A stretch of DNA of 62,971 nt, counting the filler, from Licmophora abbreviata (Eukaryota): NCBI GenBank assembly GCA_900291995.1. It is 17 parts of 17 records of this genome, joined end to end, with 100 filler letters (N's around TTAATTAATTAA, not from the genome) between each part and the next. Parts side by side here need not be neighbours in the genome. Positions count along the whole stretch, not along the records: positions 29,365 to 32,604 come from OLMU01006211.1; positions 32,705 to 44,736 come from OLMU01006212.1; 15 more parts are not named here. One strand, written 5' to 3'. The position numbers and the translations under genes are program-made. The notes beneath the pieces were generated by a model that searched no databases, was not told the DNA's origin, and saw only the letters and a list, made by a program, of their open reading frames with translations. Positions 27,610 to 47,287 of this stretch are shown here, one piece after another; the stretch's first letter is position 1; every line of letters begins with the position of its first letter.

Positions 27610-27621
27610 AGAAGGTTTAGT

Positions 27622-30265: not shown

Positions 30266-30290
30266 GAGTGATGTCCTTGAATTTGACCCA

Positions 30291-30486: not shown

Positions 30487-30623
30487 ATTAAATTTCAATG
30501 GGTTAGATGTATCACAAAATCGACTAGAGACGTTTTTTTGAGATACCGGTTACCATTTACACCGCCGCAAACCCGTTCAAACCGACCCTGCTCTCTCAGC
30601 CACACGACGGTCATCATATCGTT

Positions 30624-30683
30624 TTTATAGCCTCTCAATCGGAATCTGTCACAGCTTACAGTGTCTCACCGAAAAGTGTCTCA
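30624..30683 (-). promoter_or_regulatory. Putative late promoter with three TG[AT]GACA repeats at 15-bp pitch
   Basis: Plus-strand ctgtcaca 30646, gtgtctca 30661, gtgtctca 30676; minus-strand TATAAA at 30629-30624. Confidence 0.55.
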
Positions 30684-30716
30684 GACGCACGAGCGGGGTT
30701 GACAGTTTCTGACCGA

Positions 30717-31892
30717 TCAGATCGGCAAAGGCTCAGTGCCGCGGTCCAGCAGAGCCAGGTAATTCGAATAGGCATAGATGCGACCGCGCTGTTTCCCGGT
30801 CGTCTCTCGAATGATGCCTAGCTCCGCGAGCTTCTCAAGGGCGCCGCTCGCGGTCGGAAATGAGGTATTAAGGCCATCTGCAACCGCCTGGATTGTGACG
30901 ACCGGCCGGGCCTGCATAAATTCATGCACGCGCAGCGCCGAAGGCGCCGAGCGGCCAAGCGTGGAAATCTGCTGGCGATGCCCCTCGAACATCGCGATCA
31001 GCTCGCGGGCTGTGTCGGCAGCCTGTTCGGCGGTTTCCGCGACACCGGAGAGGAAAAACTCCATCCAAGTCTCCCAGGCACCGGCTTGACGGACTTCCTG
31101 CAGAAGCCGGTAGTAATCGTCTCGCCGCGATTTCAGGAACAAGCTGAGATAGAGGATCGGTTCATGCAGCACGCCTGCTTCGACCAGGATCAGGGTGATG
31201 AGCAATCGCCCGAGCCGGCCATTGCCGTCGAGGAAGGGGTGTATGGTCTCGAACTGAACATGGGCGAGGCCCGCGCGGATAAGCGGTGGCAGTCCGGCAT
31301 CGTCGGCATGCAGAAACCTTTCAAAGGCATCGAGACAGTCATCGAGGTGGTTTGGCGGCGGCGGCACGAACAAGGCGTTACCGGGGCGAGTGCCCCCTAT
31401 CCAATTCTGTGAACGGCGGAATTCACCAGGCTGTTTCGTGACACCGCGCCCGGATCTTAAGATGATCTGATGCATCTCGCGGATCAGTCGGAGCGAGAGC
31501 GGAAAACCGCCACGGATGCGCGCAACCCCATGCTCGATTGCAGCAACATAGTTGGATACCTCGGTGACATCTTCGAGTTCTACCGATGGTTTCTCATCGT
31601 TCTCGTAAAGCAGGAGATCGGACAACGAGGACTGAGTTCCCTCGATCTGAGATGACAGAAGCGCCTCCTTGCGCACGTACATGTAAAGAAAGAGCGGCGT
31701 GGACGGCAGGATCGTCGTAACGCCATCCAGCCGACCCACAGCGGCCACCGCGCGCTCGTAGATACTCATGAATTGCGGCAGTTCCAGTGGTGGGATTGGC
31801 GGGAGTGGCGCAGGAACATAGGCACGCAGGCGTTCGCCGCCTGCGCTTGTTTCAACGAAGGTGCCCAGCCTTTGATTGCGCTTTTCCGCCAT
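30717..31892 (-). CDS. Fic family protein (class II) with C-terminal HTH
   Basis: HPFLDGNGRLGR catalytic motif; SSQIEG inhibitory motif. Confidence 0.93.
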   Translation of the reverse strand: MAEKRNQRLGTFVETSAGGERLRAYVPAPLPPIPPLELPQFMSIYERAVAAVGRLDGVTTILPSTPLFLYMYVRKEALLSSQIEGTQSSLSDLLLYENDEKPSVELEDVTEVSNYVAAIEHGVARIRGGFPLSLRLIREMHQIILRSGRGVTKQPGEFRRSQNWIGGTRPGNALFVPPPPNHLDDCLDAFERFLHADDAGLPPLIRAGLAHVQFETIHPFLDGNGRLGRLLITLILVEAGVLHEPILYLSLFLKSRRDDYYRLLQEVRQAGAWETWMEFFLSGVAETAEQAADTARELIAMFEGHRQQISTLGRSAPSALRVHEFMQARPVVTIQAVADGLNTSFPTASGALEKLAELGIIRETTGKQRGRIYAYSNYLALLDRGTEPLPI

Positions 31893-31966
31893 TGTGCGAA
31901 CCTTTAATAGCCACCACACCTTATTAAACTATTTTGGCTCAAGCTTGAATAGTAAACCTCCTTTAT

Positions 31967-32398
31967 TCAAGAGCCACGCGTCTTTGCGACCACAAAGTCC
32001 ATTGACCGTTTGCGTGGCGCGGTTCGGCCGTTCAATCTCCAAACGATCACGGCCAAACCATACTCATGCCTCCGGTTCGCCGTGGCCCTGCTGATGCCAT
32101 GCTCCCAGCAGATCCCCTTCCAGGCCTTGCGGTTGGCGCGCGCCCAGAGGATCTGACCGATATCCTTGTCCACCCACCGCAGCCAGAGCATCGCCTCATC
32201 TGCATCGGTGATCATGCGAGGAGATGGAAGCGGCTTTTTCATCCGAGGTTCCTGTCCCACCTGATCGGCAAAGGTGGAAAGGTATTCCGGCCAAGCGCTG
32301 ACATAGCCCTGCGGGCGCACCGGTGGCATTGAGCGCATGACGTCTGCTGCAAGGTCCAACCTGTCAGCCACCATTGCCCGGGTCCATTCATCGGCCAT
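31967..32398 (-). CDS. DUF6362-like HTH protein, candidate late regulator
   Basis: LPSPRMIT..EAMLWLRW and HTH ICWEHGISRATANRR; last gene of the replication operon. Confidence 0.7.
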   Translation of the reverse strand: MADEWTRAMVADRLDLAADVMRSMPPVRPQGYVSAWPEYLSTFADQVGQEPRMKKPLPSPRMITDADEAMLWLRWVDKDIGQILWARANRKAWKGICWEHGISRATANRRHEYGLAVIVWRLNGRTAPRKRSMDFVVAKTRGS

Positions 32399-32597
32399 GG
32401 CGCACCTCCCTTCCCTGCGGGCGCTTGCCATAGAGTTTCGTTCCCAGCTGTTCGACCAATTCGCGCTCGGGCCAGGTCAGCCGGTGGTCCTCCACGCTCA
32501 CCGCCAGCACGCCCTGCTCCTGCCAGCCATCGCGCTTGACCTGTTCAGGGTCACGGCGGTTGCCGCCGTAACCCTTGGGAGTGAACCGCATACCCAT
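32388..32597 (-). CDS. Conserved hypothetical phage protein
   Basis: PKGYGG.RR.PEQVKRDGW..LTWPERE; translationally coupled on both sides. Confidence 0.75.
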   Translation of the reverse strand: MGMRFTPKGYGGNRRDPEQVKRDGWQEQGVLAVSVEDHRLTWPERELVEQLGTKLYGKRPQGREVRHGR

Positions 32598-32731
32598 CAG
32601 GCCANNNNNNNNNNNNNNNNNNNNNNNNNNNNNNNNNNNNNNNNNNNNTTAATTAATTAANNNNNNNNNNNNNNNNNNNNNNNNNNNNNNNNNNNNNNNN
32701 NNNNAACCCTTGGGAGTGAACCGCATACCCA

Positions 32732-33265
32732 TCAGGCCAGCCCTCCCTGCGTCTTGATGGCCCAAAGCAGGATGGCGATGGCATCCGCCTCGTTGTCATC
32801 GGCGGGGCTGAAGCCGCGCTGGCGCGCCGCATCGATCATGGCCTGCTTGGACGCGTTACCTTTACCCGTTGCATGGCGCTTGATGGTGCCGACCGGGACG
32901 CCCTGGTAAGGCACGCCGCGCAGCTCGGCCCAACTGGTCAGGACCGCCAGCAGCCCGCCAAAGACATGAGCCGCGTCCGTTCCAACATGCCGACGAACCT
33001 CCTCAAAATAGATCGCCTCGAGCGGGCCCGACAGACGGTCGATCTCCGTCAGCCAGTTGGTGAACCGCAGATACCGCATGCCGCCGCCGTCGTAGCGGCC
33101 GGGCTTGAAGCTGACGGTGCCGCTGATGATCAGGCCGTCGAAGCCGCGCAGAGCCCAGCCGGTAGTGGTGCCGAGGTCGAGCGCAAGGATTGTGCGGCCG
33201 CGCTCAGGCGGCGGCATTTTCGGGGTTGCGCCAACTGCGGCGCTGGACAGAGTCGTATCAGCCAT
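32732..33265 (-). CDS. RuvC-like Holliday junction resolvase
   Basis: ILALDLGTTTGWA, FEEV, TIKRHATGKGNASK and DDNEADA; SD AAAGGAG. Confidence 0.85.
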   Translation of the reverse strand: MADTTLSSAAVGATPKMPPPERGRTILALDLGTTTGWALRGFDGLIISGTVSFKPGRYDGGGMRYLRFTNWLTEIDRLSGPLEAIYFEEVRRHVGTDAAHVFGGLLAVLTSWAELRGVPYQGVPVGTIKRHATGKGNASKQAMIDAARQRGFSPADDNEADAIAILLWAIKTQGGLA

Positions 33266-33387
33266 GAGTGGTCTCCTTTTCTGGTTGGCTGCTCGGGTGG
33301 AAGACGACGGCGGTTGATGCTTGGCGGTACCGGCCGCCGTCGTCGGATTGATCTCGAGCCAGAACTTCGGCCCGAGCAGATTGCCCA

Positions 33388-33655
33388 GGGGTGGGTGGTG
33401 GACCTCCTCCCTTGCGGGGGAGTCCACCCACCCCTTTAGGGGTGCTTTTTCTGAAATCTGAAATCTGGCGCAGATCACTGATTTCATTGAGATTTTCCAG
33501 ATTTTGGAGCAGATTTTGCAAACCCCGTTCCGAAATCTGGAAACTGGCTCTCAACCCACTGAAAGATAATGGAAAAAACCAGATCTCAGATTTTTCGCGG
33601 CAGCCAGATTTTGCAAAATCTGGCCAGATTTCGGAACATGGACCCCAGATTTTGG
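33388..33655. repeat. Iteron-like CAGATTT/AAATCTG cluster with hairpins; putative replication origin
   Basis: Ten exact heptamers in both orientations between 33454 and 33652, directly downstream of the primase-helicase gene. Confidence 0.75.
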
Positions 33656-33673
33656 AAGGCAAAACAGCGTGTT

Positions 33674-36085
33674 TCATCGTGCCTCCTCCGTGTCGCGATA
33701 GACCCACACAGACGGGTTTTCGACGGGTAGAACGGCGCCGGTCTGGGGGCATTTGTAATGGCTGGGGAGCACGTCAATCAGCTCCGGTGTAATCTCCCCG
33801 GTATCGAAGTCGACTTGCTCCCGGCTGGTCGCAAGACGCATAGCCTCGACGCAAAGATAGCCGTATTTGCTGCGTTCGGTGGCGAGGTCCAGCGCTGTCG
33901 CAGCGGCCCCGCGGACGAACTTCACGTAGCCTTTCGTGGTCAGCACGTTCAGCCGTTCGCGGATGATCGATTGCCCGCCCAACCCTGCGGTGTTCTCGAA
34001 GGTCTCAGCGAACAAGGTCATGGTGTACATCCGGCCCTGAAGGGCCTCCTCGTGCAAAAGGCCGCAGATGACATCACCTTTGCGGTCGCGTTCGGCATCG
34101 TGCTTTGACCCGACCTCCTGACGAGCCAGCCGTTCGTTCATCGGGTTGATCTCGACCCAATCGCCCTTGACCTTGTCGATGATCTTCGCCGCCAGCGCCG
34201 GCCCATTGCGCAACTCGATTTCCAATTTTCGCTGCGGGCTTTCCTCATCGGGGCGGTGGAGAATGAGCCCCGAGGTGTAGAAGCCGCGCAGGGCGCTGGC
34301 GCCGGAGAGTGCCAGAAACGGGTCATCCTTGACCTGCTGCTTGCTGAGCTTCTTGGTGTGGTGGACCAGGATGACCCCGCAATCAGGGTTGATGTGATCG
34401 CGCAGAACCTCGACCCGATCCTTGAGGAAGAACATCATCGCGGCATTGTCGTTTTCACCGGCGCCCTCGGGACCGCCGTCAAAGAGATTGCGGATCGGGT
34501 CGATGCAGATGATGTCAACAGGATCCGCTGAGAAGGCGCTCCGGATGGCTTCCGCCACGCGAACACTGCCCTCGGTGTCGAGCAGCATTTTCAGCTTCGG
34601 CGTGGCCACGAGGTTGTCACGGGCAGCCGCCATCAGGCTTGGTGGCAGCGTGATCTGCTGCATGCGCTCGCGCAGATAGTGATACTGGATCTCCGCCTGG
34701 AGATAGAAGATCCGTAGCGGGCGTGGCGGCGTGAAGCCAAGGAAGGGCTGGCCAGCGGCCATGTGCACCAGCCAGGAGATCAGCAGGTCGCTCTTGCCCA
34801 CCTTGGGTGCGCCCCCCAGCACCAGAAGCCCGCCCGGCGTCAGCACGCGTGGCGCAATGATATCCGCTGGCATCGGGCTCGTGTCATCGAGGAGCGCGCC
34901 GAGGGTGAAGGTGGGCATGTCGTCCGGGGCGGGTGCTGCGCTGTCGAGCCGGATTAGGGGTGGACCGTGCTTTTCGACATGGATGGCCCAGAGGCGCTCG
35001 GACTCACGCTTGAGCCGCTCCACCGGCCATTGGGGCCGCAGCATGGCGGCATTGTAGCCGCAGATCGCTTCCCAGCCTTCGTCCTTCGACAGCCGTCCCT
35101 CATGGACCATACGGATAAAATAGCCGATCGCGGCCGAGGCGCCCTCGAAGCGGGACCAGTCATCCTGACCGCCCTCGCGCACCGGCGTGACCAGCACCTC
35201 GTCCACGCGGGGCTTGTCAGGCGCGGTGAAATCCGGCGCGAGATTGACGCCCGGCGCGGGCGGCATATCGGCCACGGCCTCGATGAACTCGTCCAGTTCG
35301 CGTTCGCTCTCGCCGTTCAACTCCACAATCTGAACCTGGGTCTTGAGATTGTTCTTGTAATAGACGGACCCTGCCACGCGGATGGGCTGATGGGCGGAGC
35401 GGAAATGCATGTCACCGCCAACCTTGGCGGCAATGTCGCCCCGCAGGCGGGTCACGCGCGCAATTTCGCTGTCCTCTGCGGGCTCGGTGAGCTTCCACCA
35501 TACATGCGCCTTGCGCTGGCCCTCAGGCGTGATGCCACCGCTTTCCACAACCATGGTGGGCGGCCCAAGATGGCGCTCTAGATGGGCTCGTTTGGCGGCA
35601 ATGTCTCCGTTGTCGATGTCGACAACAATGGCCTGCATCTGCAGCACTTCGGCGGCCTTGGCTTGCCCTGCGGCAGCGACCGTGCCGGGGATCACATAGA
35701 CCGCTGCCCACTCACGCGCCGCCCAGTTGGCGAAGGTCGCCATCTTGTCGGTGGTGTTTTCACCGGCCTCGATCCAGATGTTATGGGGCCGGCCGTCGAT
35801 GCCCTGGCCCTTGTCGATGAAACTGCGCACCGGGATCAGCCCGTCGCAATAGCCGAAGACCACCTCCATGAACTGGGCGATCTGTTCTGGATCAGGTTCA
35901 TCACCGAAGACATCGGCCATGGGGGCGGCATCGTTGAAATCGCGCCAAGGGTTGAAGTGGATCAGGTTTTCCTTTGGCGCATCCGGCGCGCTTTCGCTCG
36001 CATCTTTGGGATCATCACTCTTAGCCACTTTAGCCTCCTTCCCTGTGTCGTCGTATTCAGGCGGGTCTTTCGGGGCGTCGGTCAT
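33674..36085 (-). CDS. Primase (RepB'-like) - AAA_25/RepA-like helicase fusion
   Basis: VVDID, VESGG..HVWW and IRVAGS primase motifs; GAPKVGKS Walker A, IICIDP Walker B, LVHHTKK and SGASAL. Confidence 0.88.
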   Translation of the reverse strand: MTDAPKDPPEYDDTGKEAKVAKSDDPKDASESAPDAPKENLIHFNPWRDFNDAAPMADVFGDEPDPEQIAQFMEVVFGYCDGLIPVRSFIDKGQGIDGRPHNIWIEAGENTTDKMATFANWAAREWAAVYVIPGTVAAAGQAKAAEVLQMQAIVVDIDNGDIAAKRAHLERHLGPPTMVVESGGITPEGQRKAHVWWKLTEPAEDSEIARVTRLRGDIAAKVGGDMHFRSAHQPIRVAGSVYYKNNLKTQVQIVELNGESERELDEFIEAVADMPPAPGVNLAPDFTAPDKPRVDEVLVTPVREGGQDDWSRFEGASAAIGYFIRMVHEGRLSKDEGWEAICGYNAAMLRPQWPVERLKRESERLWAIHVEKHGPPLIRLDSAAPAPDDMPTFTLGALLDDTSPMPADIIAPRVLTPGGLLVLGGAPKVGKSDLLISWLVHMAAGQPFLGFTPPRPLRIFYLQAEIQYHYLRERMQQITLPPSLMAAARDNLVATPKLKMLLDTEGSVRVAEAIRSAFSADPVDIICIDPIRNLFDGGPEGAGENDNAAMMFFLKDRVEVLRDHINPDCGVILVHHTKKLSKQQVKDDPFLALSGASALRGFYTSGLILHRPDEESPQRKLEIELRNGPALAAKIIDKVKGDWVEINPMNERLARQEVGSKHDAERDRKGDVICGLLHEEALQGRMYTMTLFAETFENTAGLGGQSIIRERLNVLTTKGYVKFVRGAAATALDLATERSKYGYLCVEAMRLATSREQVDFDTGEITPELIDVLPSHYKCPQTGAVLPVENPSVWVYRDTEEAR

Positions 36086-36852
36086 GTGGGCAGGCCCCAA
36101 CAGCGCTCGACCCAGGGGCAGAAGCGGCATTCGAAAAAGTCGCGATTGGCGGCGATGCGGGGCAGCAGTTCCCTGGCTTCTGTGGCGCGAAGGATGCGCA
36201 CACCGCGATCCGACATGCGCTGAGCCAGCTCGGCGTCGAACGGGACTTGCTCGTGGTAAAGCTCGGCCGTGTCCTTGTTGATCGCGGTGAACATGGCCGG
36301 GTTCGCGGAAATCCCCGGCACCTGCGCTTCCATATAGGCTTGATAGACGGCGATCTGGGCGGCGTAGATCGGCTTGGACTTGGTCACGCCGTCCTTAACG
36401 CAAGCGCGCCAGTTCTTCGCGTTCATGGTCTTGCATTCCCAGAGCGCAGGAACGGGAAGGCCAATGCCCTCGGGGCCACTGGCGATTATACCATCGACAT
36501 GGCCCCGAATGCGCCCACCCGCGACCGAGAAGCCGAACTGTTCGCCATCAGGGCGATTGCCCTTGCGGGTGTAGAGATCGAAGCCTGCCTGTCTGAGCCA
36601 GGCGACCGCCAGATCCTCCAGCGCGTGGCCGATGGCGAAGATGCGCAATGACTGGCCTGAGAAATCCTGGCCCTCGTCTTTGGGCGTGGCCGTGAACTCG
36701 AATTGCAGGGCGCGTTCGCAAGCATGGCCAAGGCGCGAGCCACCAAGATAATCGCGGGGTGTGCGGGTGGCGTTCTCGGTCGTGATCGCCGCGTCGACGG
36801 CTTCATTGACACGCTCGGCAAAGCTGGGTGCGTGGTTGAAATCCAGGGTCAA
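36082..36852 (-). CDS. Cas4-like PD-(D/E)XK exonuclease
   Basis: YLGGSRLGHACER, GHVDG, WECKT, YAAQIAVY and CRFCPW..RC. Confidence 0.85.
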   Translation of the reverse strand: MTLDFNHAPSFAERVNEAVDAAITTENATRTPRDYLGGSRLGHACERALQFEFTATPKDEGQDFSGQSLRIFAIGHALEDLAVAWLRQAGFDLYTRKGNRPDGEQFGFSVAGGRIRGHVDGIIASGPEGIGLPVPALWECKTMNAKNWRACVKDGVTKSKPIYAAQIAVYQAYMEAQVPGISANPAMFTAINKDTAELYHEQVPFDAELAQRMSDRGVRILRATEARELLPRIAANRDFFECRFCPWVERCWGLPT

Positions 36853-37283
36853 AACGGAACTCCCTCGCCGAGTTCCGCATTGATTTCGAACATCTCGTTG
36901 CGGAAGGTGTCGATGGCCACGACTAGCAGGGCGTGCATTTGATACTCTGTCAGATCCGCAAAAGTTCGATCCCAACCGATATCATCAATTTCCCGGCCGA
37001 CTGCGCGCATGACGGCAGGCATCGCCATTGCTTCTTCTTCGGTTATCTCTGCCATGTTCAGTCCTTTCCTGGCTTTTCGGATGAAGGCCGACTGGCATTG
37101 CTGGGAGCAAAACCAGCGGGATGTGCGTTTGCCGCGGGGCTTGTGCGGATCGAACCAGCCAAAGCCGCGCGTGCGCGATGTGCAGGCGGCGCAAAGCTGA
37201 CCTCGCGGATGCCAGAGGCGATCAAAGCCCGGGCGATCCGCAGCCTCTGCGGGCGGAGATTGCATTTGCGCGACATGGCTCAT
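36849..37283 (-). CDS. Zn-finger / DUF6511-like protein
   Basis: CAAC..FCSQQCQ and C-terminal GVPF; overlaps both neighbours. Confidence 0.65.
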   Translation of the reverse strand: MSHVAQMQSPPAEAADRPGFDRLWHPRGQLCAACTSRTRGFGWFDPHKPRGKRTSRWFCSQQCQSAFIRKARKGLNMAEITEEEAMAMPAVMRAVGREIDDIGWDRTFADLTEYQMHALLVVAIDTFRNEMFEINAELGEGVPF

Positions 37284-38974
37284 GCCGCCTCCCGCGCGGT
37301 TGGTGCCGCAGCCATGATCAAGCTGCGGATCTCGCGCTTGTTGAAGGTGAAGGTCATCAGCGCCGAGGCCTTGTAGCGGGTCAGGCCATAGTCGCTGCGC
37401 GCATCAGGAGAGAGGTATTGCAGTTGCTTGTCTGTGGCGGGCTGGCTCAGCCAGCCGCGCGTCTTGAAGGCACTCTCGTCAGTTTCATGCTCATTGAGCC
37501 AGTCATCGGCCTGCGCAAGACACACGGACCGCTCGCCAATGCCCAGAAGTCGGGTCTGGGCTCCTTTGCGGCCACCAACCGCATACCACTGGCCCTGATA
37601 CCAGAAGATGCCACCCCAGGCCGTGAAGCCCGTGGCCATCAGCGCATCCTCCGAGCCGAAGAGGTCGACCCATTCGAAACTCGAGCGCTTCAGAAGGTCG
37701 ATTTCCGTCATCACGAAGCCGGAGAGCGCATCTCCCAGCTCTCCCTCCTGGCTCTCCGCCTCATCCTCTTCGACGAGCAACGCCCCGCAGATGGGACATT
37801 CGCGTGCCGCCAAGGGAATATCAGCCGCGCAGTCCGGGCAGGTCTTTGTCAGGGCATCCCCGCTGCCGGTAGCCCCGTCGAGATCCACATCCTGTTCCAG
37901 CGTGCCATGGGTCAGGCTCGACGTCCCGAAATCCAGCACGATACAGTCGGTCTTGATCACGCCCGCGAACTCGGCGGGATCGACAGTGCGCAGGCCCCGG
38001 CCCACCATCTGGATCATGGTCGATTTGTAGGAGCTGGGGCGCAGCAGCACGACGCAGGAAGTGGGCGGGTGGTCCCAACCCTCAGTGAGCACGGCCACGT
38101 TGGTGATGACGCGGATTTCGCCGTGGGCGAAGGCGGCCAGAATGTTGCGCCGTTCCTCGCCGGGCAGATCACCATGGATCCGCCCCGTAGGGATGCCGGC
38201 TGCGTTGAATGCCTCGGCCACATGCGCCGCATGCGCCACTGTGGAGCAGAAGACGACAGTCGGGCGATCCTTGGCCTTGTCCTGCCAATGGCGGATCACC
38301 TCCTCTGTTATTGGCGCGCGGTCCATGATCTCGGCCACTTCGGCCATGTCGAAATCCGACACGGTCTTGCGCACGGCCTTGAGCTTGTCCTGCACGCCGA
38401 CATCGATCACGAAGGTGCGCGGCGGCACCAGGTGACCCGAGGCGATCAACTCACCCAGCCGCACCTGGTCGGCGACATTGTCGAAGACCGCCCGCAGCCC
38501 CTTTTTGTCGCCCCGGTTCGGTGTGGCCGTGACCCCGAAAATGCGTGCCTCTGGATTGGCATCGCGCACATGATCGATGAGGCGACGGTAACTGTCAGCC
38601 ACGGCATGATGCGCCTCATCGATGACCAGCAGGTCTAGCTTCGGCATGGCAGCCAGATTGCGTTCGCGCGTCAGCGTCGGGACCATCGCGAAAGTCACCT
38701 GCCCGCCCCAGGACTTGGTCGTGGCATCTACTACGGAGGTGGTGATTGCCGGATTGACCCGTCCGAACTTCTCCCGGTTCTGTGCGGTCAACTCGTCACG
38801 GTGGGCGAGCACACAGGCCTTGGCGTCAGTGTCGCCGATGCTTTCGCCGGTGACCGCCGACAGCATGATCGTCTTGCCCGCTCCCGTCGGCGCGATGCCG
38901 AGCGTGTTGTTGCGGGTGCCGAGCGCAGACAGGCTGCGCTCGACGAAGAGTTTCTGGCGGGGACGCAATCGCAT
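37280..38974 (-). CDS. SF2 DEAH-box helicase
   Basis: PTGAGKT, IDEAHH, TATP, LTEGWD and QMVGRGLR motifs plus a Zn finger. Confidence 0.95.
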   Translation of the reverse strand: MRLRPRQKLFVERSLSALGTRNNTLGIAPTGAGKTIMLSAVTGESIGDTDAKACVLAHRDELTAQNREKFGRVNPAITTSVVDATTKSWGGQVTFAMVPTLTRERNLAAMPKLDLLVIDEAHHAVADSYRRLIDHVRDANPEARIFGVTATPNRGDKKGLRAVFDNVADQVRLGELIASGHLVPPRTFVIDVGVQDKLKAVRKTVSDFDMAEVAEIMDRAPITEEVIRHWQDKAKDRPTVVFCSTVAHAAHVAEAFNAAGIPTGRIHGDLPGEERRNILAAFAHGEIRVITNVAVLTEGWDHPPTSCVVLLRPSSYKSTMIQMVGRGLRTVDPAEFAGVIKTDCIVLDFGTSSLTHGTLEQDVDLDGATGSGDALTKTCPDCAADIPLAARECPICGALLVEEDEAESQEGELGDALSGFVMTEIDLLKRSSFEWVDLFGSEDALMATGFTAWGGIFWYQGQWYAVGGRKGAQTRLLGIGERSVCLAQADDWLNEHETDESAFKTRGWLSQPATDKQLQYLSPDARSDYGLTRYKASALMTFTFNKREIRSLIMAAAPTAREAA

Positions 38975-38985
38975 GGCGTGTCCCC

Positions 38986-39600
38986 TCACTCAGCCCAGCT
39001 GGGCCGGCCGGTGAACCCGGGGCTGGCTGGCGGTTGCGCCGGCGCTTGGGCGGTCTGTTGCGGGGATTGCGGCGCGGCGGGGGCACTCGGCAGAGTGGAC
39101 GCCGCAAGCCCCATGACAGACGCGTAATCGCGATGGTTTGGCGCCAGTGCGCTTTTGATCTCGTTTTTCTCCTCCCCATTGCTGTCGGTGCCGACATCGA
39201 TGCGGGCAACAAATTCCAGGCCATCAAGTTCGTGGAAGCCGGCAATCCGGCGCCGCGCCTGGGCCTCGGGCGAGTTGTCCTTGTCGGAAATCCCGCGAGA
39301 CGAATTGAGGATACCCCGGATCAGGCTGCGCCCCATATTGGCCCAGTTCGGGCCATTGGGGCTGTAGAGCCCGATCATCGACCAGATCTTACGCTTGGCG
39401 TAAGGCCCTTCGAGCACCGTGAATTCGGCATCGAGATAGACAGCGCCCGTGCCGCCGCGCTTGGCATAGCCGCCGGTCCAGCCCTGCGCCGGATCGTCAA
39501 ACCCGCCCGGGCGGATGGTCAGGCGCACCTTGGCGATCGTGCCTTTGGGGATCAGATTGATGTTTGACTGTGCGTCGTTGAAATCGTTCCAGAGAGACAT
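38986..39600 (-). CDS. Putative phage single-stranded DNA-binding protein
   Basis: LIPKG..YLDAEFTVLEGPYAKRKIW; Pro/Ala tail ending RPSWAE; follows the AAA ATPase. Confidence 0.65.
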   Translation of the reverse strand: MSLWNDFNDAQSNINLIPKGTIAKVRLTIRPGGFDDPAQGWTGGYAKRGGTGAVYLDAEFTVLEGPYAKRKIWSMIGLYSPNGPNWANMGRSLIRGILNSSRGISDKDNSPEAQARRRIAGFHELDGLEFVARIDVGTDSNGEEKNEIKSALAPNHRDYASVMGLAASTLPSAPAAPQSPQQTAQAPAQPPASPGFTGRPSWAE

Positions 39601-39613
39601 CGCTCAAGTCCTT

Positions 39614-40507
39614 TCAGTTGGCGGAAACGTTGGGGGTGTCAGCCATCGCAGGGGACGGCTTTGGGAGTTGCGGTGACTGGTAGATCAGCCGGCGTTCGGC
39701 GGGCGCGAGGGGGCCACGGATCTTGTCCATCAGCTGACCCAGATGCGGCGGCTCGGTCAGATCGAGACGACCGGAGCGATCCTTGGCAGGGAAGCCCCAG
39801 GGGTTGAGGGTTTGGCAAACGAAGCCGCGCTGGAGCTGCCCGTCCTCACCCTTGATCTCGGCCATGGTAATGACCTGATCAACGATGCCCGGCAGCTCGA
39901 GCCCGGTCTTGGACCCATCGATCTGCGGCATGAAGACCTTGCGATTGAAGTCGTCGAGCTTCTCGTCGAGGATGCCGACAAACCAAACATTCTTGCCGCG
40001 CGTGTGCTGCAGATGGGTCAGCCAAGCGATCATCTCGCGCCCATGCAAGCCGTAGGCGCCGCGCACATCGGGCTTTCCTGTTTTTTCTGAATGCGCCTCA
40101 GGCTGCCCCTTGCACCATTGAAAGCAGAGCCGCCCGGCCACGGTGATCGAGTCGATGAAGACCGTGTCATACTTGTCGAGCGCGGCTGGATCGCCGAACT
40201 TCTGGCAAACGGCCGCATAATGCGCGGGGCTATAGGCTTGATCATCGCGCAGCGCCGGGTTCGGCCCGCCAATAAACACCGCGAAATCCCGGCATTCGGT
40301 CCAGGTGCGCGGCCGGATGGCGTCGATCGCCAGCCCTTCGATGGCCAGGTCCCCAGCTTCTAGATCAAAAAACAGCGTGGTGGAGGCGTTCAGCGTCCAG
40401 AGCAGGCTGGTCTTGCCGATACCAGAACGACCGAAAATCACGCCCTTGATGCCCCGGGCCTCAGCCAAACGCTGATCGGCAGTGATGATGGGAAGCGCGC
40501 CGGTCAT
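39614..40507 (-). CDS. AAA_24/Sak4-like ATPase
   Basis: GRSGIGKT, DLEAG, VFIDSIT and PAKDRSG. Confidence 0.85.
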   Translation of the reverse strand: MTGALPIITADQRLAEARGIKGVIFGRSGIGKTSLLWTLNASTTLFFDLEAGDLAIEGLAIDAIRPRTWTECRDFAVFIGGPNPALRDDQAYSPAHYAAVCQKFGDPAALDKYDTVFIDSITVAGRLCFQWCKGQPEAHSEKTGKPDVRGAYGLHGREMIAWLTHLQHTRGKNVWFVGILDEKLDDFNRKVFMPQIDGSKTGLELPGIVDQVITMAEIKGEDGQLQRGFVCQTLNPWGFPAKDRSGRLDLTEPPHLGQLMDKIRGPLAPAERRLIYQSPQLPKPSPAMADTPNVSAN

Positions 40508-40989
40508 GCCGCCTCTCCCGGTTCAAGCGTGATCTTCAGCGCCCCAACTCTTACGGTGCGCGCGGGCTCGAACCCCTTCCGCCAAGCCTCGGGCAGTGCG
40601 CCGTATTTGCGCTCCGAAACCGTCAGCTTGGTGTCGATGAACTCAGATGGATCCTCACCGCTGTCAGCGATGTTGGCTGCGATCTGCGCAAGCTTCTCTT
40701 GGTTCCAGTCGACGCGTTTCGGCAGATCGGCCACCACGGTGTAATAACCGTCAGCCAGCCGCACAGTACCAGTGTCCTTACCACAGGCACGGCGGGCCTC
40801 GGCGGCGCGCGTGGAGTAGCGCACCTCGAGGGCTGCGTTGAAACGTGCGGTGGCGGATTTGTGCTGGCGGGCGGCATGCGTGAGTTCCGCCTGCAAACCT
40901 GCCAGCAACTCAACCGGCATTTGAGCCAACTCGCCAATCGGCATGTTGAGCATGTCATCCACGCTCCGGGTGTTTTGAGGATAAGGCAT
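40504..40989 (-). CDS. Conserved hypothetical phage protein
   Basis: SD AGGAG; GKDTGTV..LPKRVDWNQ..VSERKY..F.PARTV. Confidence 0.75.
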   Translation of the reverse strand: MPYPQNTRSVDDMLNMPIGELAQMPVELLAGLQAELTHAARQHKSATARFNAALEVRYSTRAAEARRACGKDTGTVRLADGYYTVVADLPKRVDWNQEKLAQIAANIADSGEDPSEFIDTKLTVSERKYGALPEAWRKGFEPARTVRVGALKITLEPGEAA

Positions 40990-41012
40990 GGGGTCTCCTT
41001 TCTTGGGGTAAG

Positions 41013-41348
41013 TCAGGCCGCTTCTGCGAGCTGCTTGACGGCTTTTTCCGTGCGGGGTGTCTTGGGTCGGGCGATGGCCTGGTAGGAAAACAGGTCTGGG
41101 CCCAGCCGTTTCTGGACGAGGTGCACGAGCCCATGGCATTCGCTCCAGAAGGCGCGGTCGCGCAGCAGCGCCAGTTCAGCGCGGGCATTGAGATCCAAAC
41201 CTGACGTGACCTTGTCGGCATCCACCGCGAGATGGCCGCGATGGTATTCCAGGCAGTCGCCTGGCACAGCCTGAGCCACCCAGGCACAAAACTGGATCTC
41301 CGTCAGAGCGCGGCTGGCGCGTACGGTGGCAAAACGGGTGTGTTGCAT
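41013..41348 (-). CDS. Conserved hypothetical phage protein, first gene of the replication operon
   Basis: SD GAGGAGG; FCAWV.QA.PGD.LEYHRG.L..LVHLVQ.R. Confidence 0.75.
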   Translation of the reverse strand: MQHTRFATVRASRALTEIQFCAWVAQAVPGDCLEYHRGHLAVDADKVTSGLDLNARAELALLRDRAFWSECHGLVHLVQKRLGPDLFSYQAIARPKTPRTEKAVKQLAEAA

Positions 41349-41369
41349 GAAATTGGCCTCCTCAATATT

Positions 41370-41400
41370 CTCCTACTCACGCCGAAGCGAAATCGTCCCA
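41370..41400 (-). promoter_or_regulatory. Bipartite promoter-like site, copy 1 (TGGGACG-N14-TGAGTAGGAG)
   Basis: Same boxes and spacing as 44310-44340; lies 22 nt upstream of ORF 41348. Confidence 0.75.
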
Positions 41401-41973
41401 TGAGGGGCCGACGCCGAAGGCGGTCAGCACAGGTCGAAGGTCCGCAAGGCGCCGATAAAGTGCCGAGCGGCTGGCAAAACCCTCAGAAACAAGCTCGGCA
41501 ACAGAGCGATGAGCAAGAGCCCGGCAGAGTGAGCGCTGATCGGCTGAGAGGAGCGATACCGCGCAGTGCAGCGCATGTTGACGCTCGAAGGCGAGATGCT
41601 TGCAGGTTGGCTGGCCATACCAGGCTGCAAGGCCGTCATCTTCTGACAGGGTTTCGCAGAGAGGACGCGGATCGGCCTCGTCGCGGGGGGCATCTAGGGA
41701 CAGATGCCCGCCGTTTTCCACGTCTCGGGTCCGCATGATGCGCAGCGCGATGCGCGACGACTGGTTTTTTAGGATGATGCCAGCGAACGCACCCAAGCTG
41801 CCACGCGATCTGTCGAAGGCCGGCAGGCGGCGCAGCAGATCCACCAGCAGGTCCTGGCCAAGATCCTCGACTTCGCGACTAGGCAGACCCAGTCTGCGCC
41901 GCAACTTGCGTGCGGCCATGTTGGCCTCGAAGATGAGGGTTTCAATATCGTCTGGGGTGAGCTCGATCTGCAT
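41377..41973 (-). CDS. Phage-encoded ECF-like sigma-70 factor
   Basis: Region-2-like EDLGQDLLVDLLRRLPAFDRSRGSLGAF, LSLDAP, and region-4-like L..DQR.L..SRSALYRRL. Confidence 0.75.
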   Translation of the reverse strand: MQIELTPDDIETLIFEANMAARKLRRRLGLPSREVEDLGQDLLVDLLRRLPAFDRSRGSLGAFAGIILKNQSSRIALRIMRTRDVENGGHLSLDAPRDEADPRPLCETLSEDDGLAAWYGQPTCKHLAFERQHALHCAVSLLSADQRSLCRALAHRSVAELVSEGFASRSALYRRLADLRPVLTAFGVGPSWDDFASA

Positions 41974-42079
41974 TGTTGCGGTCCTTGGTCATCGTTTCGG
42001 ATGAGCCCAAGGTGCCGGATGCAGCGTCCCCTTCGGTGGGAACTGGGTGGGAATATGGTGGGCGTTTGGTGGAAACGCG

Positions 42080-43030
42080 TCAGCCGTCGATCACGATTTC
42101 GGTGGCGGGAATGCTCAGATAATACCCTCGATTGCGCGCGACCACGATCAGCGCCATCACCTCTTCCTTCGAGAAACCCGCCGCTTTGAATGCGTCGCGC
42201 AGTTCCCGGATCAAATCTTTTGCCTCGCGTCCCGACGTGCCCTCAAGCTTCGGGCCAGAAACGATGGGATCGCGGGTTCTGCCTGCATCTGCGAGCTGGC
42301 GAAACACCGGAAACAGTTGATGCGAGAGGATGACCGAACGGCCCATCCATTGAACTTCGCCGGTTCCTGAACGAAGCTGAAGCTTCGGTTTCGATGCTGC
42401 AGGCTCAATCACACCGCCATCGACCGTGGCCCCAAAGGGCCCTGAGCCCGGGATCAGCGCATGCGCTGTCTCAACGGCAAGAATGCCCGCGTCCTCAAAG
42501 GTCAGTGCGATATTGGTCGGCAGCTTCGGGCCAAGAAGCGTGATGCCTTGCTCTTTTGCCGCCTGTCGAAGGCGCAGCAGCGCGCCGTCATACGCGACCG
42601 AACGCACCTCCAGCGTCAAGAACACACTCCGGCCAGAAGCCATACTACCGAGCATCCAAAGGCCTGCAGCGATTTCCGGCGGGTCTGCCGAGAAGCCCGC
42701 AGTGATGCCGATTGCAGAGGCCAAACTCCCCGCTTCGATGGAATAGGCCCGCAGATCATCCTCGCTGAGATCGATATCACGACGGCGATCCAGCGGACAT
42801 TCCGCCCGAAACCCGGTGCCGTTGGGGCGAATTTTGCGCGCCGCCAGCCCACAATCACACAGGTCGCAGGTATCCCAATGTGTCAACGAGGCCTGCTCGA
42901 TGAGCACGCCCCGCGCAAGCAAGCGTTTGAAAACTGGCTCCGGGATCGAAGCCGCCATATCGCCGGCAAGGATTGCGTCGTTCCCGGCTTCACTCAGCCG
43001 CGTCAACAACCTCAAAATCGTCTCGGTCAT
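42080..43030 (-). CDS. Hypothetical protein with Cys cluster and C-terminal winged-helix domain
   Basis: CDLCDC..ECP; C-terminal IRELR..RNRGYYL resembles an OmpR-type wHTH. Confidence 0.6.
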   Translation of the reverse strand: MTETILRLLTRLSEAGNDAILAGDMAASIPEPVFKRLLARGVLIEQASLTHWDTCDLCDCGLAARKIRPNGTGFRAECPLDRRRDIDLSEDDLRAYSIEAGSLASAIGITAGFSADPPEIAAGLWMLGSMASGRSVFLTLEVRSVAYDGALLRLRQAAKEQGITLLGPKLPTNIALTFEDAGILAVETAHALIPGSGPFGATVDGGVIEPAASKPKLQLRSGTGEVQWMGRSVILSHQLFPVFRQLADAGRTRDPIVSGPKLEGTSGREAKDLIRELRDAFKAAGFSKEEVMALIVVARNRGYYLSIPATEIVIDG

Positions 43031-44231
43031 TCACCAGTCCATTGCGTTCGATCAAGGTCATGACACGCCCTTCGAATTGGGTGCGGCGGAATTGGACCAC
43101 GCCCGGCGGGCGCAACTTCACGGTCACCTGCGGCTGTCGCTTGCCATCCCCCTTGAAGACGATGCGGAATACCAATTCACCCAGCCGCCACGATCCATTG
43201 AAGGTCACCGGCATGGAGGCGAAATGTCTGAGCGCTTGCCCGGAAACGTCCCGCGACCGCAGGGTGCGGGCTACACGCGGATATCCACTTTTACCCGGGA
43301 CCATGAAATCGGCGGCCGCCTCGATAATCTGAACGCTCTCGATGGTCGGATCATAACTGTGCCTGAATGTGAAATTGGGCCCCGCAAGCTCGACAGGGCG
43401 CAAGGTGTAGAGGTCTTGCGCGTCATCCCCGTCGAAAAAGCCAGGCCGCTCCAGAATGATCGTCGCAAAGAACTCCGCGATTTCAGCCTGATGCGCTTTG
43501 CGGATGCGTGCGAGCCTCAACATGCCAGTGCTTTCCGAATAGCGCAGAACCGCGTGCGAGATCTGTCTCACGCTGATGACCCGCTCTTGTTGTCCCTCGA
43601 CGACCGGCATGGTCGACACTGTGGCGCCATGGCTGACCACGAGATTGATCTCGTCGCCATCGGCGTAATCACCAACACGGCAGTAATCCCCCTGAAACGC
43701 CTTGCAGAAGAGCTTGCCAACGGCGGCGCGGAACGCCTCCACCTTTTCCCGTGTCAGGTCGATCAGGACACCGCGTTCACGGCCGGCATATTCGTGCAGG
43801 CGATCTGCCGTCATCATTGCCATGTGATCGGCTGCGGCGTCGAAAAGGTCGGGATGTTCCAGGAACACGCGCAGCGCCATGTGCTTGGGGTCATGCGCTG
43901 CCGGTGCGGTTTCGTCATCGCTTGTCTTGAGCTCGGGGAAAAGATCAATACCTGCGCGGTCCGCCTGCGTCAGAATGATCTCGAGGCCGCGTGCATCGCC
44001 CAGCGATGCAATACGGTGCAGGTCTTCGCGCAGCCCCTCAGGATAGCTGTCTTCATCGCCAGCCAGCAATTCCTGCAAGGCTTCGCGGGCCCTGGCCTCC
44101 TCCTGATCAAGGATTGCAGGTGAAAACCCGATATATTCCCCGGCATGGCGCTCCATCAACAGCTTCATGACGGTGAGGTCGATTGTCTTGATGAACCGAG
44201 GGTTCACGAACTTCTTCAAATTGCTGGCCAC
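42990..44231 (-). CDS. Hypothetical protein, first gene of the LexA-box operon
   Basis: About 410-aa ORF; GTG start at 44231 with SD GAGGGAG; overlaps the next gene. Confidence 0.75.
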   Translation of the reverse strand: MASNLKKFVNPRFIKTIDLTVMKLLMERHAGEYIGFSPAILDQEEARAREALQELLAGDEDSYPEGLREDLHRIASLGDARGLEIILTQADRAGIDLFPELKTSDDETAPAAHDPKHMALRVFLEHPDLFDAAADHMAMMTADRLHEYAGRERGVLIDLTREKVEAFRAAVGKLFCKAFQGDYCRVGDYADGDEINLVVSHGATVSTMPVVEGQQERVISVRQISHAVLRYSESTGMLRLARIRKAHQAEIAEFFATIILERPGFFDGDDAQDLYTLRPVELAGPNFTFRHSYDPTIESVQIIEAAADFMVPGKSGYPRVARTLRSRDVSGQALRHFASMPVTFNGSWRLGELVFRIVFKGDGKRQPQVTVKLRPPGVVQFRRTQFEGRVMTLIERNGLVNDRDDFEVVDAAE

Positions 44232-44262
44232 AGCGAATCTCCCTCTGCCCAAGCTCCGAAAA

Positions 44263-44277
44263 GTTCACTATATGTTC
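44263..44277 (-). promoter_or_regulatory. Alphaproteobacterial LexA (SOS) box
   Basis: GTTC-actatat-GTTC matches GTTC-N7-GTTC exactly; overlaps a minus-strand TATAGT -10 with TTGCTG 16 nt upstream. Confidence 0.8.
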
Positions 44278-44309
44278 TCATTTCAATTCAGCAAGACCGA
44301 CACGGGTCG

Positions 44310-44340
44310 TGGGACGCTTTACCGATACCATGAGTAGGAG
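44310..44340 (+). promoter_or_regulatory. Bipartite promoter-like site, copy 2 (TGGGACG-N14-TGAGTAGGAG)
   Basis: Matches 41400-41370; upstream of ORF 44370 and the DUF2924-like gene. Confidence 0.75.
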
Positions 44341-44369
44341 CCTTAGGAGAAGACCGCTCCGAGGCCCCC

Positions 44370-44573
44370 ATGAAACGACCCAACCCACTGCCACCGGACA
44401 AGATGACCGCCATGGAACGGCGCGCAGAAATGTGCCGCCTGCTGGCGCTTGGCCTGATCCGCCTCCACCAGCGGGACTTCGCACAACTATCTGACGTAAA
44501 AGGAGAAAGTTGGCTACACAACTCAGCCGACCAGAGCTTTCATGCAACTCCTATAGAAAAGGAGACCGCATGA
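44370..44573 (+). CDS. Small hypothetical protein
   Basis: MKRPNPLPPDKMT..ERRAE.C.LLALGLIRL; SD GAGG; ATGA overlap with the next gene. Confidence 0.65.
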   Translation: MKRPNPLPPDKMTAMERRAEMCRLLALGLIRLHQRDFAQLSDVKGESWLHNSADQSFHATPIEKETA

Positions 44574-44736
44574 CACACCATGATCCCATCCCGGCGCGAC
44601 TGGCCGCGCTGAAGACTACGTCGACACGCGACCTCAAGGCACAATGGCGCGAGCTGTTCGACAGCGAGCCGCCACCCTTCAACCGACGTTATCTCGAAAG
44701 CCGCCTCGCATACCGCATTCAGGAACTGGCCTATGG
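44570..44736 (+). CDS. DUF2924-like protein (usually upstream of a serine recombinase), truncated
   Basis: LK.QWRELF..EPPPFNRRYLESRLAYRIQELAY; SD AAGGAG. Confidence 0.85.
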
Positions 44737-44836: not shown

Positions 44837-47287
44837 CATGGCTTTCTGTTGGGAGACCAGAGACGAGGGCCATCGCGTACGTTGCGGAATTCTTCGTCGT
44901 ACGACTCGCTGCTCTCGATGGGTGCGGTCGTGCAGTGGCGTGACCTTTTGCAGCAGTCGATTCGGCGTGGTCTCTCCAAGCTACGACAGGCATTGGTCAA
45001 CCACCCTCCTCCTTGGTGGCTGCTCTTGACTTCGACGTTTCCGTTTTGCAACTGCAGCAACGCCTTGACGCAGATACAATCTTTCTTTTGGTATCCGCTC
45101 GCCTTATGGTGGACTCTGTGTAGTGTTGAGGACGGACAGGGCGGAGAAAATGGAAATTCTCATTCCAAGGGAGGCGCTTCTCGTACTGTCACCGCCTTGC
45201 CACAGGAAGAAGAACCGGTCCATAGTACCAACGCGAGTCTCAACGAAGAGGATCAACGAAACGATCTCTCTAAAGCTTTCCCGCTTCAGCAGCAACGATA
45301 CCTCGAACTCCTCGTGCACAATGTGTCCCATACTGACATGGTCCTGAGTGTAGAGGCTCCTACAAGTGCGAGTACTATCGAGGAAGACGCAGACAGCGAA
45401 GACGAGTATTGCATGTGCCAGCCACGATTCTCGGCCTTTGACATGTACGCTCGAAGGATTCTGGAGAGTCTCCAAGACAGTACGGGGACATCGTCATCGT
45501 CATCGATTGTTTCGTTTCCTCGCTACGAACGAGCCGGTGATACACGATTCAGCATTGTCACTCCCAAGGCGCCATCGCGACGGACGCAAGTTCCCACAGG
45601 TATTCAATTGCCATACGAGCATGCGGCACTCGAGATCATTCCCGATGAACTCTCAAGTTTGAGATTTCGGGGAAAAGATGCGCCCCGCATGACCGATCCG
45701 AATGCTATGACAACCACCACGTACATGAACTATGTTTTCTTTCCGCTCCTTGCGACCTTGCTGCCCCGATGGCATCAACGCATGCAGGACACACATGCGA
45801 CAAACAACCGTCACCATGTAAAGAAGGTGCTACTGCTTGTGACTGGTGTAGGAACTCCGCGGAACTGGACGCACAGCATAACAGGAAACTCCACTGAGTT
45901 GTGTGCGCAGATCATGGAGAAGTTCGTCGCAATGGTGTATCCGGATGTGACGGTGGTCAGGTAAATCCTGTCTGCTGATCAGGGCCTCGCTCGTATCTTG
46001 TACTTCCTGCCTGTGTCTCAACCCTTTCGTACTGGCCGCTCACACAGAATTCATTCCGACACAAATCTCTTTCGTTACGACGAAAACATACTTTTTGTCA
46101 ACCGGGAGCTTATGCCGTGTATCGACGCGTATCGTGATGCCCATGCTCGTGGACTACCTTACCCAGATGAAAGTGAAAAAAGCGCGTCTCAGATTTTTAC
46201 AAAGACGGACCACCCATTCTCGACCAACTGGAAGCAGTCGTTTTCCGTCACATTGAGTTTCGCGGATGGTTCTCCGGCGCGCACGCACGCAATTCAGGCT
46301 AGTCTACGTCCGTATCGCCCCACATACTTCCATGTTTGGCAGCTGAAGACTTTCTGGCATGATACCAAGATTGTTGATGACGATATTGAAGTACATTCGT
46401 TTGAAGAGATGGAAACTGTTCCAGCCATGGAGACTTCGGAAGTGACTGATGTGGGAGTGCAAATGGTAGTAGAGGAAATAAAGCAGTTTCGACAAAACTT
46501 TCTAGAGACGATTCTGGAGGATCGCAATGACATTCGAAGGTTCTGGCTACGCAAAACGATGAAACCAGTCCTGGCGGTACTCCTGGTGAACGATACCAAT
46601 GGCAAACCTGTCCTCTACCGGGGCACCAACATGGAAGTGAGCATGCCGACAGGATCCTTGTGTGCGGAACGGAACGTTATTGGAAGTGCGCTCGCGATGA
46701 ATCCTGGTTTGAAGCGAGAAGACTTGCGCATGGTGGCAGTACTAGCAGTGCCACTGCCTAGTGATACGAGCAACGTTGAGGAATCCGTTGTTCGGGACCC
46801 CAACATGAGCCGTTCCGATAGCGTGCACAGCTTCTCGAGCATCGTGCAGGATACATCACATGAGGAAGAGGAATGGATCTTGGCACAGGAGGCGCCAACT
46901 ACTGGCGAGGAGCGTGTGGCGAGCCTGGTGACGGCGGCCAGAAACGCTATTTCAGCGAAGGAGCTTCCCATTGGTGCCCCGCCGCTCCATCGAAAACCGT
47001 CGATATCGAGCCCCCCTGGAACTCCCATGCGATGTACGCCCATCTCACTGTATTCCCAGAACAGCGAGACAAACTTGCGAGCTCTTGACAGTAATAGCAA
47101 GACCAGTCGCAAGCAGAAACGTACGGTCCTGCTGAATCACGGCATGAACGATCTCAATCCTCTCATGCCATGTGGCAGCTGCAATGAGTGGCTGAAGAAA
47201 ATTGCCGAGTCGAATCCGTACTTCAAGGTCGTTACGTTCACCGACGCGGAGTGTACGGGGATTTTCATAAATCCCTGCCAAGAGTAA
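44837..47287 (+). CDS. Large protein with a C-terminal cytidine-deaminase-like domain, 2 exons, 5'-truncated
   Basis: GT-AG intron 45961-46047; GTNME..SLCAERN and PCGSC Zn motifs. Confidence 0.75.

Follow-up and report, generated by a model that had tools for sequence, protein, structure and literature searches.

We analysed a stretch of 62,971 nucleotides (nt) from the Licmophora abbreviata assembly GCA_900291995.1 (hereafter the window), and found that it carries the regulatory region of a cos-type prophage with a serine recombinase. This prophage is probably silenced by the SOS repressor of its host, LexA, and not by a CI repressor, and its genes are likely to be turned on through a four-step cascade that runs from LexA to a gene pair (A413 and B316), then to a sigma factor, and then to a late regulator of the DUF6362 family. 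The original prediction for this stretch was a three-tier cascade of LexA, sigma factor and late regulator, and its building blocks were all recovered: Pfam and helix-turn-helix (HTH) scans of the window found no CI/Cro-like HTH-peptidase gene at the divergent point (44231/44370), a LexA box lies near that point, a sigma factor gene is accompanied by two matching promoter-like sites, and an HTH gene, which is the DUF6362 gene, ends the replication operon, with phased repeats before cos. LexA on top, the private sigma factor with two promoters and the late regulator could thus be kept, but four tiers are most likely instead of three, because the two genes that had been called unknown are predicted to encode one RdgC-like protein and one winged-helix protein of the OmpR type, and a separate phased operator precedes the sigma gene. 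The earlier account had also overlooked the CCCAC repeats at 42036-42073, a Fic gene and the contrast in GC content between contigs.

The regulatory region was compared with a slot set of 284 loci. Of these, 203 reach from DUF2924 as far as the first early genes, and non-redundancy at 95% left 139. Type S slots (85 of the 139, the window included) contain A413, B316 and the sigma gene. Type C slots (28) contain CI, a winged-helix gene of about 230 amino acids (aa) and an HTH_17 gene, and type F slots (18) contain a fusion of about 720 aa, a zinc-ribbon gene and another sigma-like gene, of 240 aa. The other 8 slots include one hybrid with CI, winged-helix and sigma genes. Since 63 slots came from A413- or sigma-based queries, these counts are not frequencies; the 73 slots from neutral queries were 21 S, 26 C, 18 F and 8 other.

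LexA box and search for a repressor

The LexA box (GTTC-N7-GTTC, on the minus strand GAAC-N7-GAAC) is located at 44263-44277, where it overlaps the -10-like hexamer TATAGT of the activator operon, and it is the sole exact one among the bacterial contigs of the window. An exact box precedes the first rightward gene in 79 of the 85 S slots, with 28 different spacers, when 0.78 would be expected from shuffles, and it was also found in 19 of the 28 C slots and 16 of the 18 F slots (fewer than 1 expected in each). Of 12 host lexA genes, 11 likewise have a GAAC-N7-GAAC box before them, as does the lexA gene of the assembly from which the window comes. Because the exact box is common in S, C and F slots, LexA control is read as family-wide, and types S and F are set apart from type C by the absence of CI, not by the LexA box. 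In the first step of the cascade, host LexA would cover the promoter of A413 and B316 and repress it. A generic sigma-70 scan gave no promoter at 44150-44400 or at 30260-30760, so the promoters in these two intervals were read by eye and from conservation only.

No HTH/S24 gene was found at the divergent point, and no CI-like S24 repressor anywhere in the window. A Cro-like small divergent HTH gene was not found there either: the divergent genes are A413 and a conserved 67-aa gene (44370-44573, plus strand), and neither has an HTH family. The original prediction had left room for a repressor in the unsequenced part of the element and had proposed that the complete element be searched. Thirteen relatives were assembled from adjacent stretches, ten of them reaching from the recombinase to about the tail/lysis region, and the genome-wide S24 search gave no match inside any of these 13 elements. 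The same search recovered the CI of two tandem sibling elements as a positive control. In 7 of the 13 relative genomes there was a single S24 match, on another contig, and six of these seven were fetched and each was lexA. The S24 matches in the window's own assembly were lexA and one weak match in a contig of 52% GC, with no CI-like repressor. The Pfam scan of 150 small-protein family representatives from ten elements showed no conserved XRE protein, and returned metal-regulator cargo and a single HTH_3 protein, which neighbours a RelE toxin in one of the elements. From the S24 searches of the relatives, the Pfam scan of the small families and the search of the own assembly, a CI elsewhere in the element is unlikely; a repressor of some unfamiliar fold is conceivable.

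It is very improbable that a small non-S24 repressor keeps lysogeny in place of CI. The candidates are the 67-aa gene, a 111-aa gene, a 69-aa gene and an HTH gene of about 130 aa after the recombinase, which are all conserved and without assignment, and the last one has weak HTH matches (E 0.08-0.1). But sigma-type motifs, and no maintenance promoter, precede all of them, and CI-bearing siblings also have the 67-aa, 111-aa and ~130-aa genes.

A413 and B316 as a predicted activator pair

A413 (413 aa; 42990-44231, minus strand) is predicted to consist of a helical N-domain and an RdgC-like domain (model pLDDT 81; RdgC match by Foldseek, E 5.8e-6). The comparison with RdgC (VIA) gave Z 9.9 and a root-mean-square deviation (rmsd) of 5.3 over 225 aligned residues with 7% identity, and CENP-N tied within 1 Z. 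At the sequence level, scans of A413 against Pfam (E up to 1), NCBIfam and PADLOC gave no family, and no Pfam family scored meaningfully for 28 distant relatives. The A413 profile retrieved 847 clusters at 50% identity, including a 755-aa natural fusion with an A413-like N-terminal part (E 3.4e-25) and a Trans_reg_C match, and A413 was not found in the plasmid collection.

B316 (316 aa; 42080-43030, minus strand) has four invariant cysteines in its alignment, an alpha/beta middle domain and a C-terminal OmpR/PhoB winged helix. Residues 215-315 matched BaeR (VIA) with Z 10.3 and an rmsd of 2.7 over 90 aligned residues, and Foldseek also indicated a winged helix. For the middle domain, which has no Pfam match, a receiver-like fold (Z 6.5) ties with endonuclease-like folds (Z 5.7-7.2). 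Profile comparison of A413 with a 716-aa fusion gave a probability of 38% (E 3e-4), and the B316 alignment gave weak values of 0.4, 3.5 and 2.2% against the 716-aa fusion, the 755-aa fusion and a 227-aa sibling activator, respectively. Because these B316 comparisons are weak, the case for homology of the C-terminal halves is made by architecture and by weak hidden Markov model matches. A complex prediction for A413 and B316 (score 0.09, mark 0.34) gave no answer and was used neither way.

Four CCCAC-type pentamers with an 11-bp period (42036-42073, minus strand) precede the sigma gene and form the predicted B316 operator. At least three exact pentamers at this period stand before the sigma gene in 65 of the 85 slots (0.04 expected), and the repeat unit follows the winged-helix tree, with CCCAC in most clades, CACAC in one and a G-rich unit in another. 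PhoB boxes have an 11-bp period. In the second step of the cascade, A413 and B316, which are fused in relatives, would act after DNA damage as one activator, and the winged helix of B316 would bind the four phased repeats, the last of them at the -35 position, and turn on the sigma gene.

Read differently, the sigma gene is just the third cistron of the LexA-repressed operon, which would make three tiers and leave A413 and B316 to serve another purpose. The gap between B316 and the sigma gene is short in the window and 300 nt or less in 45 of 85 relatives, and SigN of plasmid pBS32 is directly repressed by LexA (PMC6751061). But the gap is longer than 300 nt in 40 of the 85 relatives, often with an opposite-strand gene in it, and the phased repeats stay beside the sigma gene in 35 of these 40 slots and follow the B316 clade, so we regard the three-tier version as quite improbable. 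The interval between B316 and the sigma gene is also a hot spot of variable defence-like cargo in these 40 relatives (L002-L039: HNH nuclease, a beta-protein with M78 peptidase, and others).

Another reading makes A413 an element-encoded brake that replaces CI by holding B316 inactive, aiding LexA or damping RecA, with the downstream cascade unchanged. E. coli RdgC inhibits RecA, and A413 has an RdgC-like fold. Besides, A413-like and CI-S24 genes were never found together in any of the 139 slots, and gp7 of phage GIL01 provides a precedent for a LexA co-repressor (PMC6182141). This reading is nevertheless unlikely in our view: the LexA box also precedes A413, which in relatives is fused to a winged-helix partner, and in slot L131 an A413/B316-like pair adjoins an apparent XRE repressor and an ImmA-type protease gene (both by eye), so the pair can coexist with a repressor.

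The pair may also be compared with GAPS4, for which a DNA-encircling ring of GAPS4b is predicted in a damage-triggered nuclease (PMC13748975), a loose analogy only. The nearest named Atlas cluster is GAPS4b_N (0.79, a lead only), and residues 1-212 of B316 are weakly similar to restriction-endonuclease-like proteins (Z 5.7-7.2). The HGxD-SxK motif of the GAPS4 PD-(D/E)xK nuclease was not found among the invariant B316 columns. The PADLOC scan gave one weak match among 18 proteins and none for the A413 or B316 of the window. The fixed position, the strict linkage of the pair to the sigma gene (85 of 85 slots) and the covariation with the operator fit a regulator, whereas the defence-like cargo at the locus varies. 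That A413 and B316 are an SOS-induced defence or damage-sensing nuclease pair unrelated to prophage activation is thus highly improbable.

Sigma factor and its promoter motifs

The sigma gene (41377-41973, minus strand) encodes an ECF-like (extracytoplasmic function) protein of 198 aa with a Pfam Sigma70_r2 match (E 2e-6), and Sigma70_r2 was found in 18 of 18 sigma members. Its best PDB match was SigE (E 0.009), over regions 2 and 4, with a weak alignment in region 4. No anti-sigma factor was recognised for it, and the viral scan with the single sigma sequence gave one locus.

The strict twin motif GGGAC-N16-GAGTA has only two matches in the 63 kb. The leftward one (TGGGACG-N14-TGAGTAG; 44310-44337, plus strand) stands before the integration/excision operon, and the early one (41400-41373, minus strand) overlaps the last codons and the stop of the sigma gene. 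In the third step of the cascade, the sigma factor would transcribe from these two promoters the DUF2924-recombinase operon and the replication operon. The leftward motif was found in 84 of the 85 S slots (0.06 expected) and in the one CI+sigma hybrid, that is, in 85 of the 86 slots bearing this sigma, and in none of the 53 slots without it (0/28 C, 0/18 F). The early motif was found in 81 of the 85 S slots. Its internal Asp codon was GAC in 81 of 81 cases, compared with 670 of 1253 (53%) elsewhere in these genes, and mere conservation of the protein (Trp-Asp) was rejected on this codon bias. Type F slots have a twin motif of their own, TGTCCC and then TGGCTTT, at both matching places (17/18 F, 0/85 S, 0/28 C). 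Within 300 nt before the sigma gene itself, the GGGAC-N16-GAGTA motif was found in 0 of the 85 slots.

Predicted late regulator and late promoter

The DUF6362 protein (31967-32398, minus strand; Pfam) has a C-terminal HTH, and its gene closes the early operon in all 13 relatives that were assembled. Its Atlas neighbours include an antiterminator-Q cluster (PF06530; score 0.95, family on 42% of members). It had no meaningful sequence match among solved PDB structures, no NCBIfam match at E up to 0.1, and no match to Gp20 of phage AcaML1.

Three GAGACA-type repeats with a 15-bp period (30647-30682, minus strand) cover roughly -76 to -41 relative to the predicted late promoter, and are followed by two -10-like hexamers, TATAAA and then TATGAT 11 nt on (30613-30629, minus strand); two such hexamers 11 nt apart are also present in relatives. 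With TATGAT as the -10, the repeats span -76 to -41 and the -35 is poor, and with TATAAA as the -10, the -35 coincides with the third repeat, and TATGAT would be a pause-like element. A cos-like site comes next (30448-30486, minus strand), with a cosQ-like GGGTCCT and then a G-rich 12-mer, and a gpA-type terminase is encoded downstream; we take this layout to be like that of lambda cos. A Fic-family cargo gene (30717-31919, minus strand; Pfam) stands between the late regulator and the late promoter in the window, and relatives have different cargo, or no cargo at all, at that site. Across 19 distinct late regions, the repeats keep to the promoter that precedes cos, both with and without cargo after DUF6362. 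The GAGACA repeats pair with the helix GISRATANRR, and a TACA-type variant pairs with GLSRTAATKR.

In the fourth step, DUF6362 would bind the three repeats and open the late operon. Its likelier mode would be activation of a promoter whose -35 is poor, and action as a Q-like antiterminator is possible, at a lower probability. As to a terminator downstream of the late promoter, only a 5-bp hairpin was found, which was not above shuffles.

Swappable cassettes

In one close relative, A413, B316 and the sigma protein were 89-97% identical and the flanking genes on both sides only 49-60%, which indicates that the cassette moves as a unit. The regulatory cassette is swappable, because the slot is occupied in siblings by a true CI or by a fused ring-activator that comes with a different sigma and a different motif.

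Type C cassettes (for example L044:1387-3338 and L048:2465-4444, with CI-S24, LexA box, ~230-aa winged-helix gene and HTH_17 gene) have direct and inverted, 11-bp-phased, clade-specific repeats before the HTH_17 gene, and would be an activator switch that is doubly locked, by CI and by LexA. In type F (for example L193:6268-6990 and L096:8549-9268), the 240-aa sigma-like protein had Sigma70_r4 in 8 of 8 cases. The L131 slot, with an A413/B316-like pair beside the repressor and protease genes mentioned above, has no LexA box. In G001:C11, G003:C11, G004:C15 and G005:C14, a second family member was found in tandem 63-68 kb away, with a different cassette each, which suggests a shared integration site and coexisting switch types.

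Points against the cascade

Several points weigh against the four-step cascade. All of its regulatory arrows are drawn from sequence features. The covariation of B316 with its repeats amounts to about three independent changes among relatives that share ancestry, and that of the DUF6362 helix with its repeats to one independent change. In the window, the sigma gene is just 106 nt from B316, and read-through is possible. None of the 18 sigma members had a Sigma70_r4 match (only generic HTH matches were obtained), and TIGR02937 was below its cut-off. Slots that lack this sigma can have the early motif as well (12/18 F, 2/28 C and 3/3 other slots), and there it may be a relic of crossover or recombination at the cassette edge. 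The Pfam scan for repressors covered 150 of 169 small families, while another 100 families exceed 300 aa. Finally, the model gives A413 no settled role, and does not account for integrase production after infection.

Source of the element and other features

The window is made up of contigs with N-linkers between them; the contigs at 21225-44736 have a GC content of 59-64% and the remainder 47-52%. The high-GC contigs encode gpA terminase, methylases, RuvC-like protein, primase, helicase and Sak4, as in a cos-type prophage, and the join of the two contigs that carry the region studied here is real, because they share an overlap of about 35 nt. The assembly (29 Mb, 7,734 contigs) also has a contig of 63% GC with an alphaproteobacterial-type lexA, and at least 3 copies of a related serine recombinase. 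The A413 query found 40 loci among GTDB genomes with 74-83% identity, nearly all of them labelled Alphaproteobacteria, and of 301 genomes sampled from the family of one relative, 23 have this sigma. The element is probably an alphaproteobacterial prophage of a co-assembled bacterium and not a feature of the eukaryote. Horizontal transfer into the eukaryote was rejected, as linkers bound the bacterial contigs and the 63% GC contig with lexA is present. Two GTDB records labelled Bacillota (L026 and L028; Oceanobacillus, Exiguobacterium) carry this alphaproteobacterial element and are likely mislabelled or contaminated. Among the sequencing runs, two DNA or unlabelled runs contained about 80% of sampled words, and all runs consisted of contigs. 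A 4.3-kb relative contig in an RNA-labelled run spans the cassette, which does not show transcription.

The contig with the cassette stops within DUF2924 (44570-44736, plus strand; Pfam), which in relatives is followed by the large serine recombinase and the ~130-aa HTH gene. The 67-aa gene is the first of this leftward operon and occurs in every cassette type. The early operon (32732-41348, minus strand; Pfam, with an order conserved across relatives) encodes the 111-aa protein, a 161-aa protein, a Sak4-like annealase, a 204-aa protein, a helicase, DUF6511, a Cas4-like nuclease, a primase/AAA_25 protein and a RuvC-like resolvase. The primase gene is followed by CCAGATTT repeats in direct and inverted orientation (33461-33660), which mark a probable replication origin.

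Outside these features, the gpA terminase at 22627-24985 is split over two overlapping frames with a LAGLIDADG-like stretch (Pfam, E 2.6e-5), possibly an intein, or an intron, plus a frameshift. At 27247-29030 there is DUF3489 and then, opposite the late operon, a toxin-antitoxin pair (Phd/ParE); the methylase is followed by a PD-(D/E)XK nuclease. In L047, L050, L075 and L081, heavy-metal cargo (mer, ars, copper and chromate-type, with MerR/ArsR regulators) was found in the late region or after the lysis genes. Just past the linker, at 45998-47287, there is a eukaryote-like gene with a cytidine-deaminase motif (by eye), which is unrelated to the prophage.

Significance of the cassette

This analysis offers base-level operators for the four tiers and predicted functions for several unannotated families. 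The slot set is also a natural experiment, in which one prophage backbone has three switches (CI, CI-free sigma and fused activator), and it bears on how silence, establishment of lysogeny and immunity are achieved without a repressor of the prophage's own. A more speculative idea, which we think rather unlikely, is that the RdgC-like ring is a phage sensor of DNA damage that replaces the RecA-cleavable repressor, and that is produced once LexA is released but has to encounter DNA that is broken or being replicated before it can license the winged-helix partner. If it were true, this would be a two-key switch of activators alone, perhaps recruited from a GAPS4-like sensor-nuclease pair, the ring-activator (fused in siblings and in Gp6 of AcaML1) would be an unrecognised class of master activator across proteobacterial prophages, and silencing by LexA only could explain why these common prophages are absent from plaque-isolated collections. 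Among 50,697 phage records, there was no match for A413, this sigma or the type C winged-helix activator.

Comparison with known systems

The original prediction had called this cascade unrecognised from characterised temperate phages. That holds for the architecture: in the open literature, without supplements, we found no description of this cassette and nothing on DUF6362, and DUF2924 with a recombinase only in Wolbachia. It does not hold for the logic, for which GIL01 and SigN of pBS32 are precedents. The parts of the cassette and their swappability appear undescribed, and switching by an activator or sigma factor gated by host LexA is known.

pBS32 of Bacillus subtilis is a prophage-bearing plasmid, in which the LexA-repressed sigma factor SigN (ZpdN) is, like here, encoded by the element and gated by host LexA, and has replication-type genes in its regulon (PMC6751061). 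Unlike here, LexA represses sigN directly, SigN activates its own gene, and the regulon largely excludes the prophage region (PMC6751061). In our element, the prediction places an activator tier between LexA and sigma, the sigma gene has no sigma motif before it (0/85), and the element is an integrated cos phage. In the Betatectivirus GIL01, host LexA likewise keeps lysogeny, with no dedicated phage repressor, and the phage activator gp6 delays the late genes (PMC6182141). But GIL01 is a linear tectivirus, LexA and gp7 together repress its early and late promoters (PMC6182141), and it is not known to have a sigma, winged-helix or ring protein.

Compared with the lambdoid CI/Cro arrangement, the element has the same divergent slot between the integration and replication operons. 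In both, the early operon ends with the late regulator, cargo precedes the late promoter, and there are cos and a gpA terminase, but this cassette has neither CI nor Cro. In siblings, the slot does have an HTH+S24 CI, accompanied by a LexA box and a winged-helix activator. The late regulator is like TP901-1 Alt, RinA, Q21, BrrG and GafZ in being an HTH protein encoded by the last early gene and acting, as predicted here, on a promoter before the packaging genes (PMC3152322; bioRxiv 10.1101/2024.11.20.624540; PMC11150451). Alt binds repeats at -76 to -32 (PMC3152322), and the repeats here are at -76 to -41. Q-type systems use a second -10-like element (bioRxiv 10.1101/2024.11.20.624540), which may be present here. 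DUF6362 differs from Alt, RinA and Q in having no sequence match to solved structures and no NCBIfam match.

The nearest phage records are AcaML1 (Acidithiobacillus phage, JX507079) and Wolbachia phage WO. WO shares DUF2924 beside a serine recombinase (34-39%), but no A413 or sigma match was found in the phage collection, which includes WO records. AcaML1 shares the backbone of small subunit, serine recombinase, DUF2924, a gene like the 67-aa gene, Sak4, SSB-like protein, RuvC, methylases and terminase, and no CI match was found in its first 24 kb. Unlike our element, AcaML1 has no LexA box of either type tested and no sigma, and the slot of the late regulator holds a protein with a weak match to DUF6456, the domain name given to GafA homologues (PMC9638019). 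Its Gp6 (L341:3281-5536), which lies on the recombinase strand behind an HTH_17/PIN pair, unlike here, is a full-length relative of the type F ring-activator fusion (24% over 677 aa, E 9e-39), and this protein, annotated as hypothetical, is a candidate master activator.

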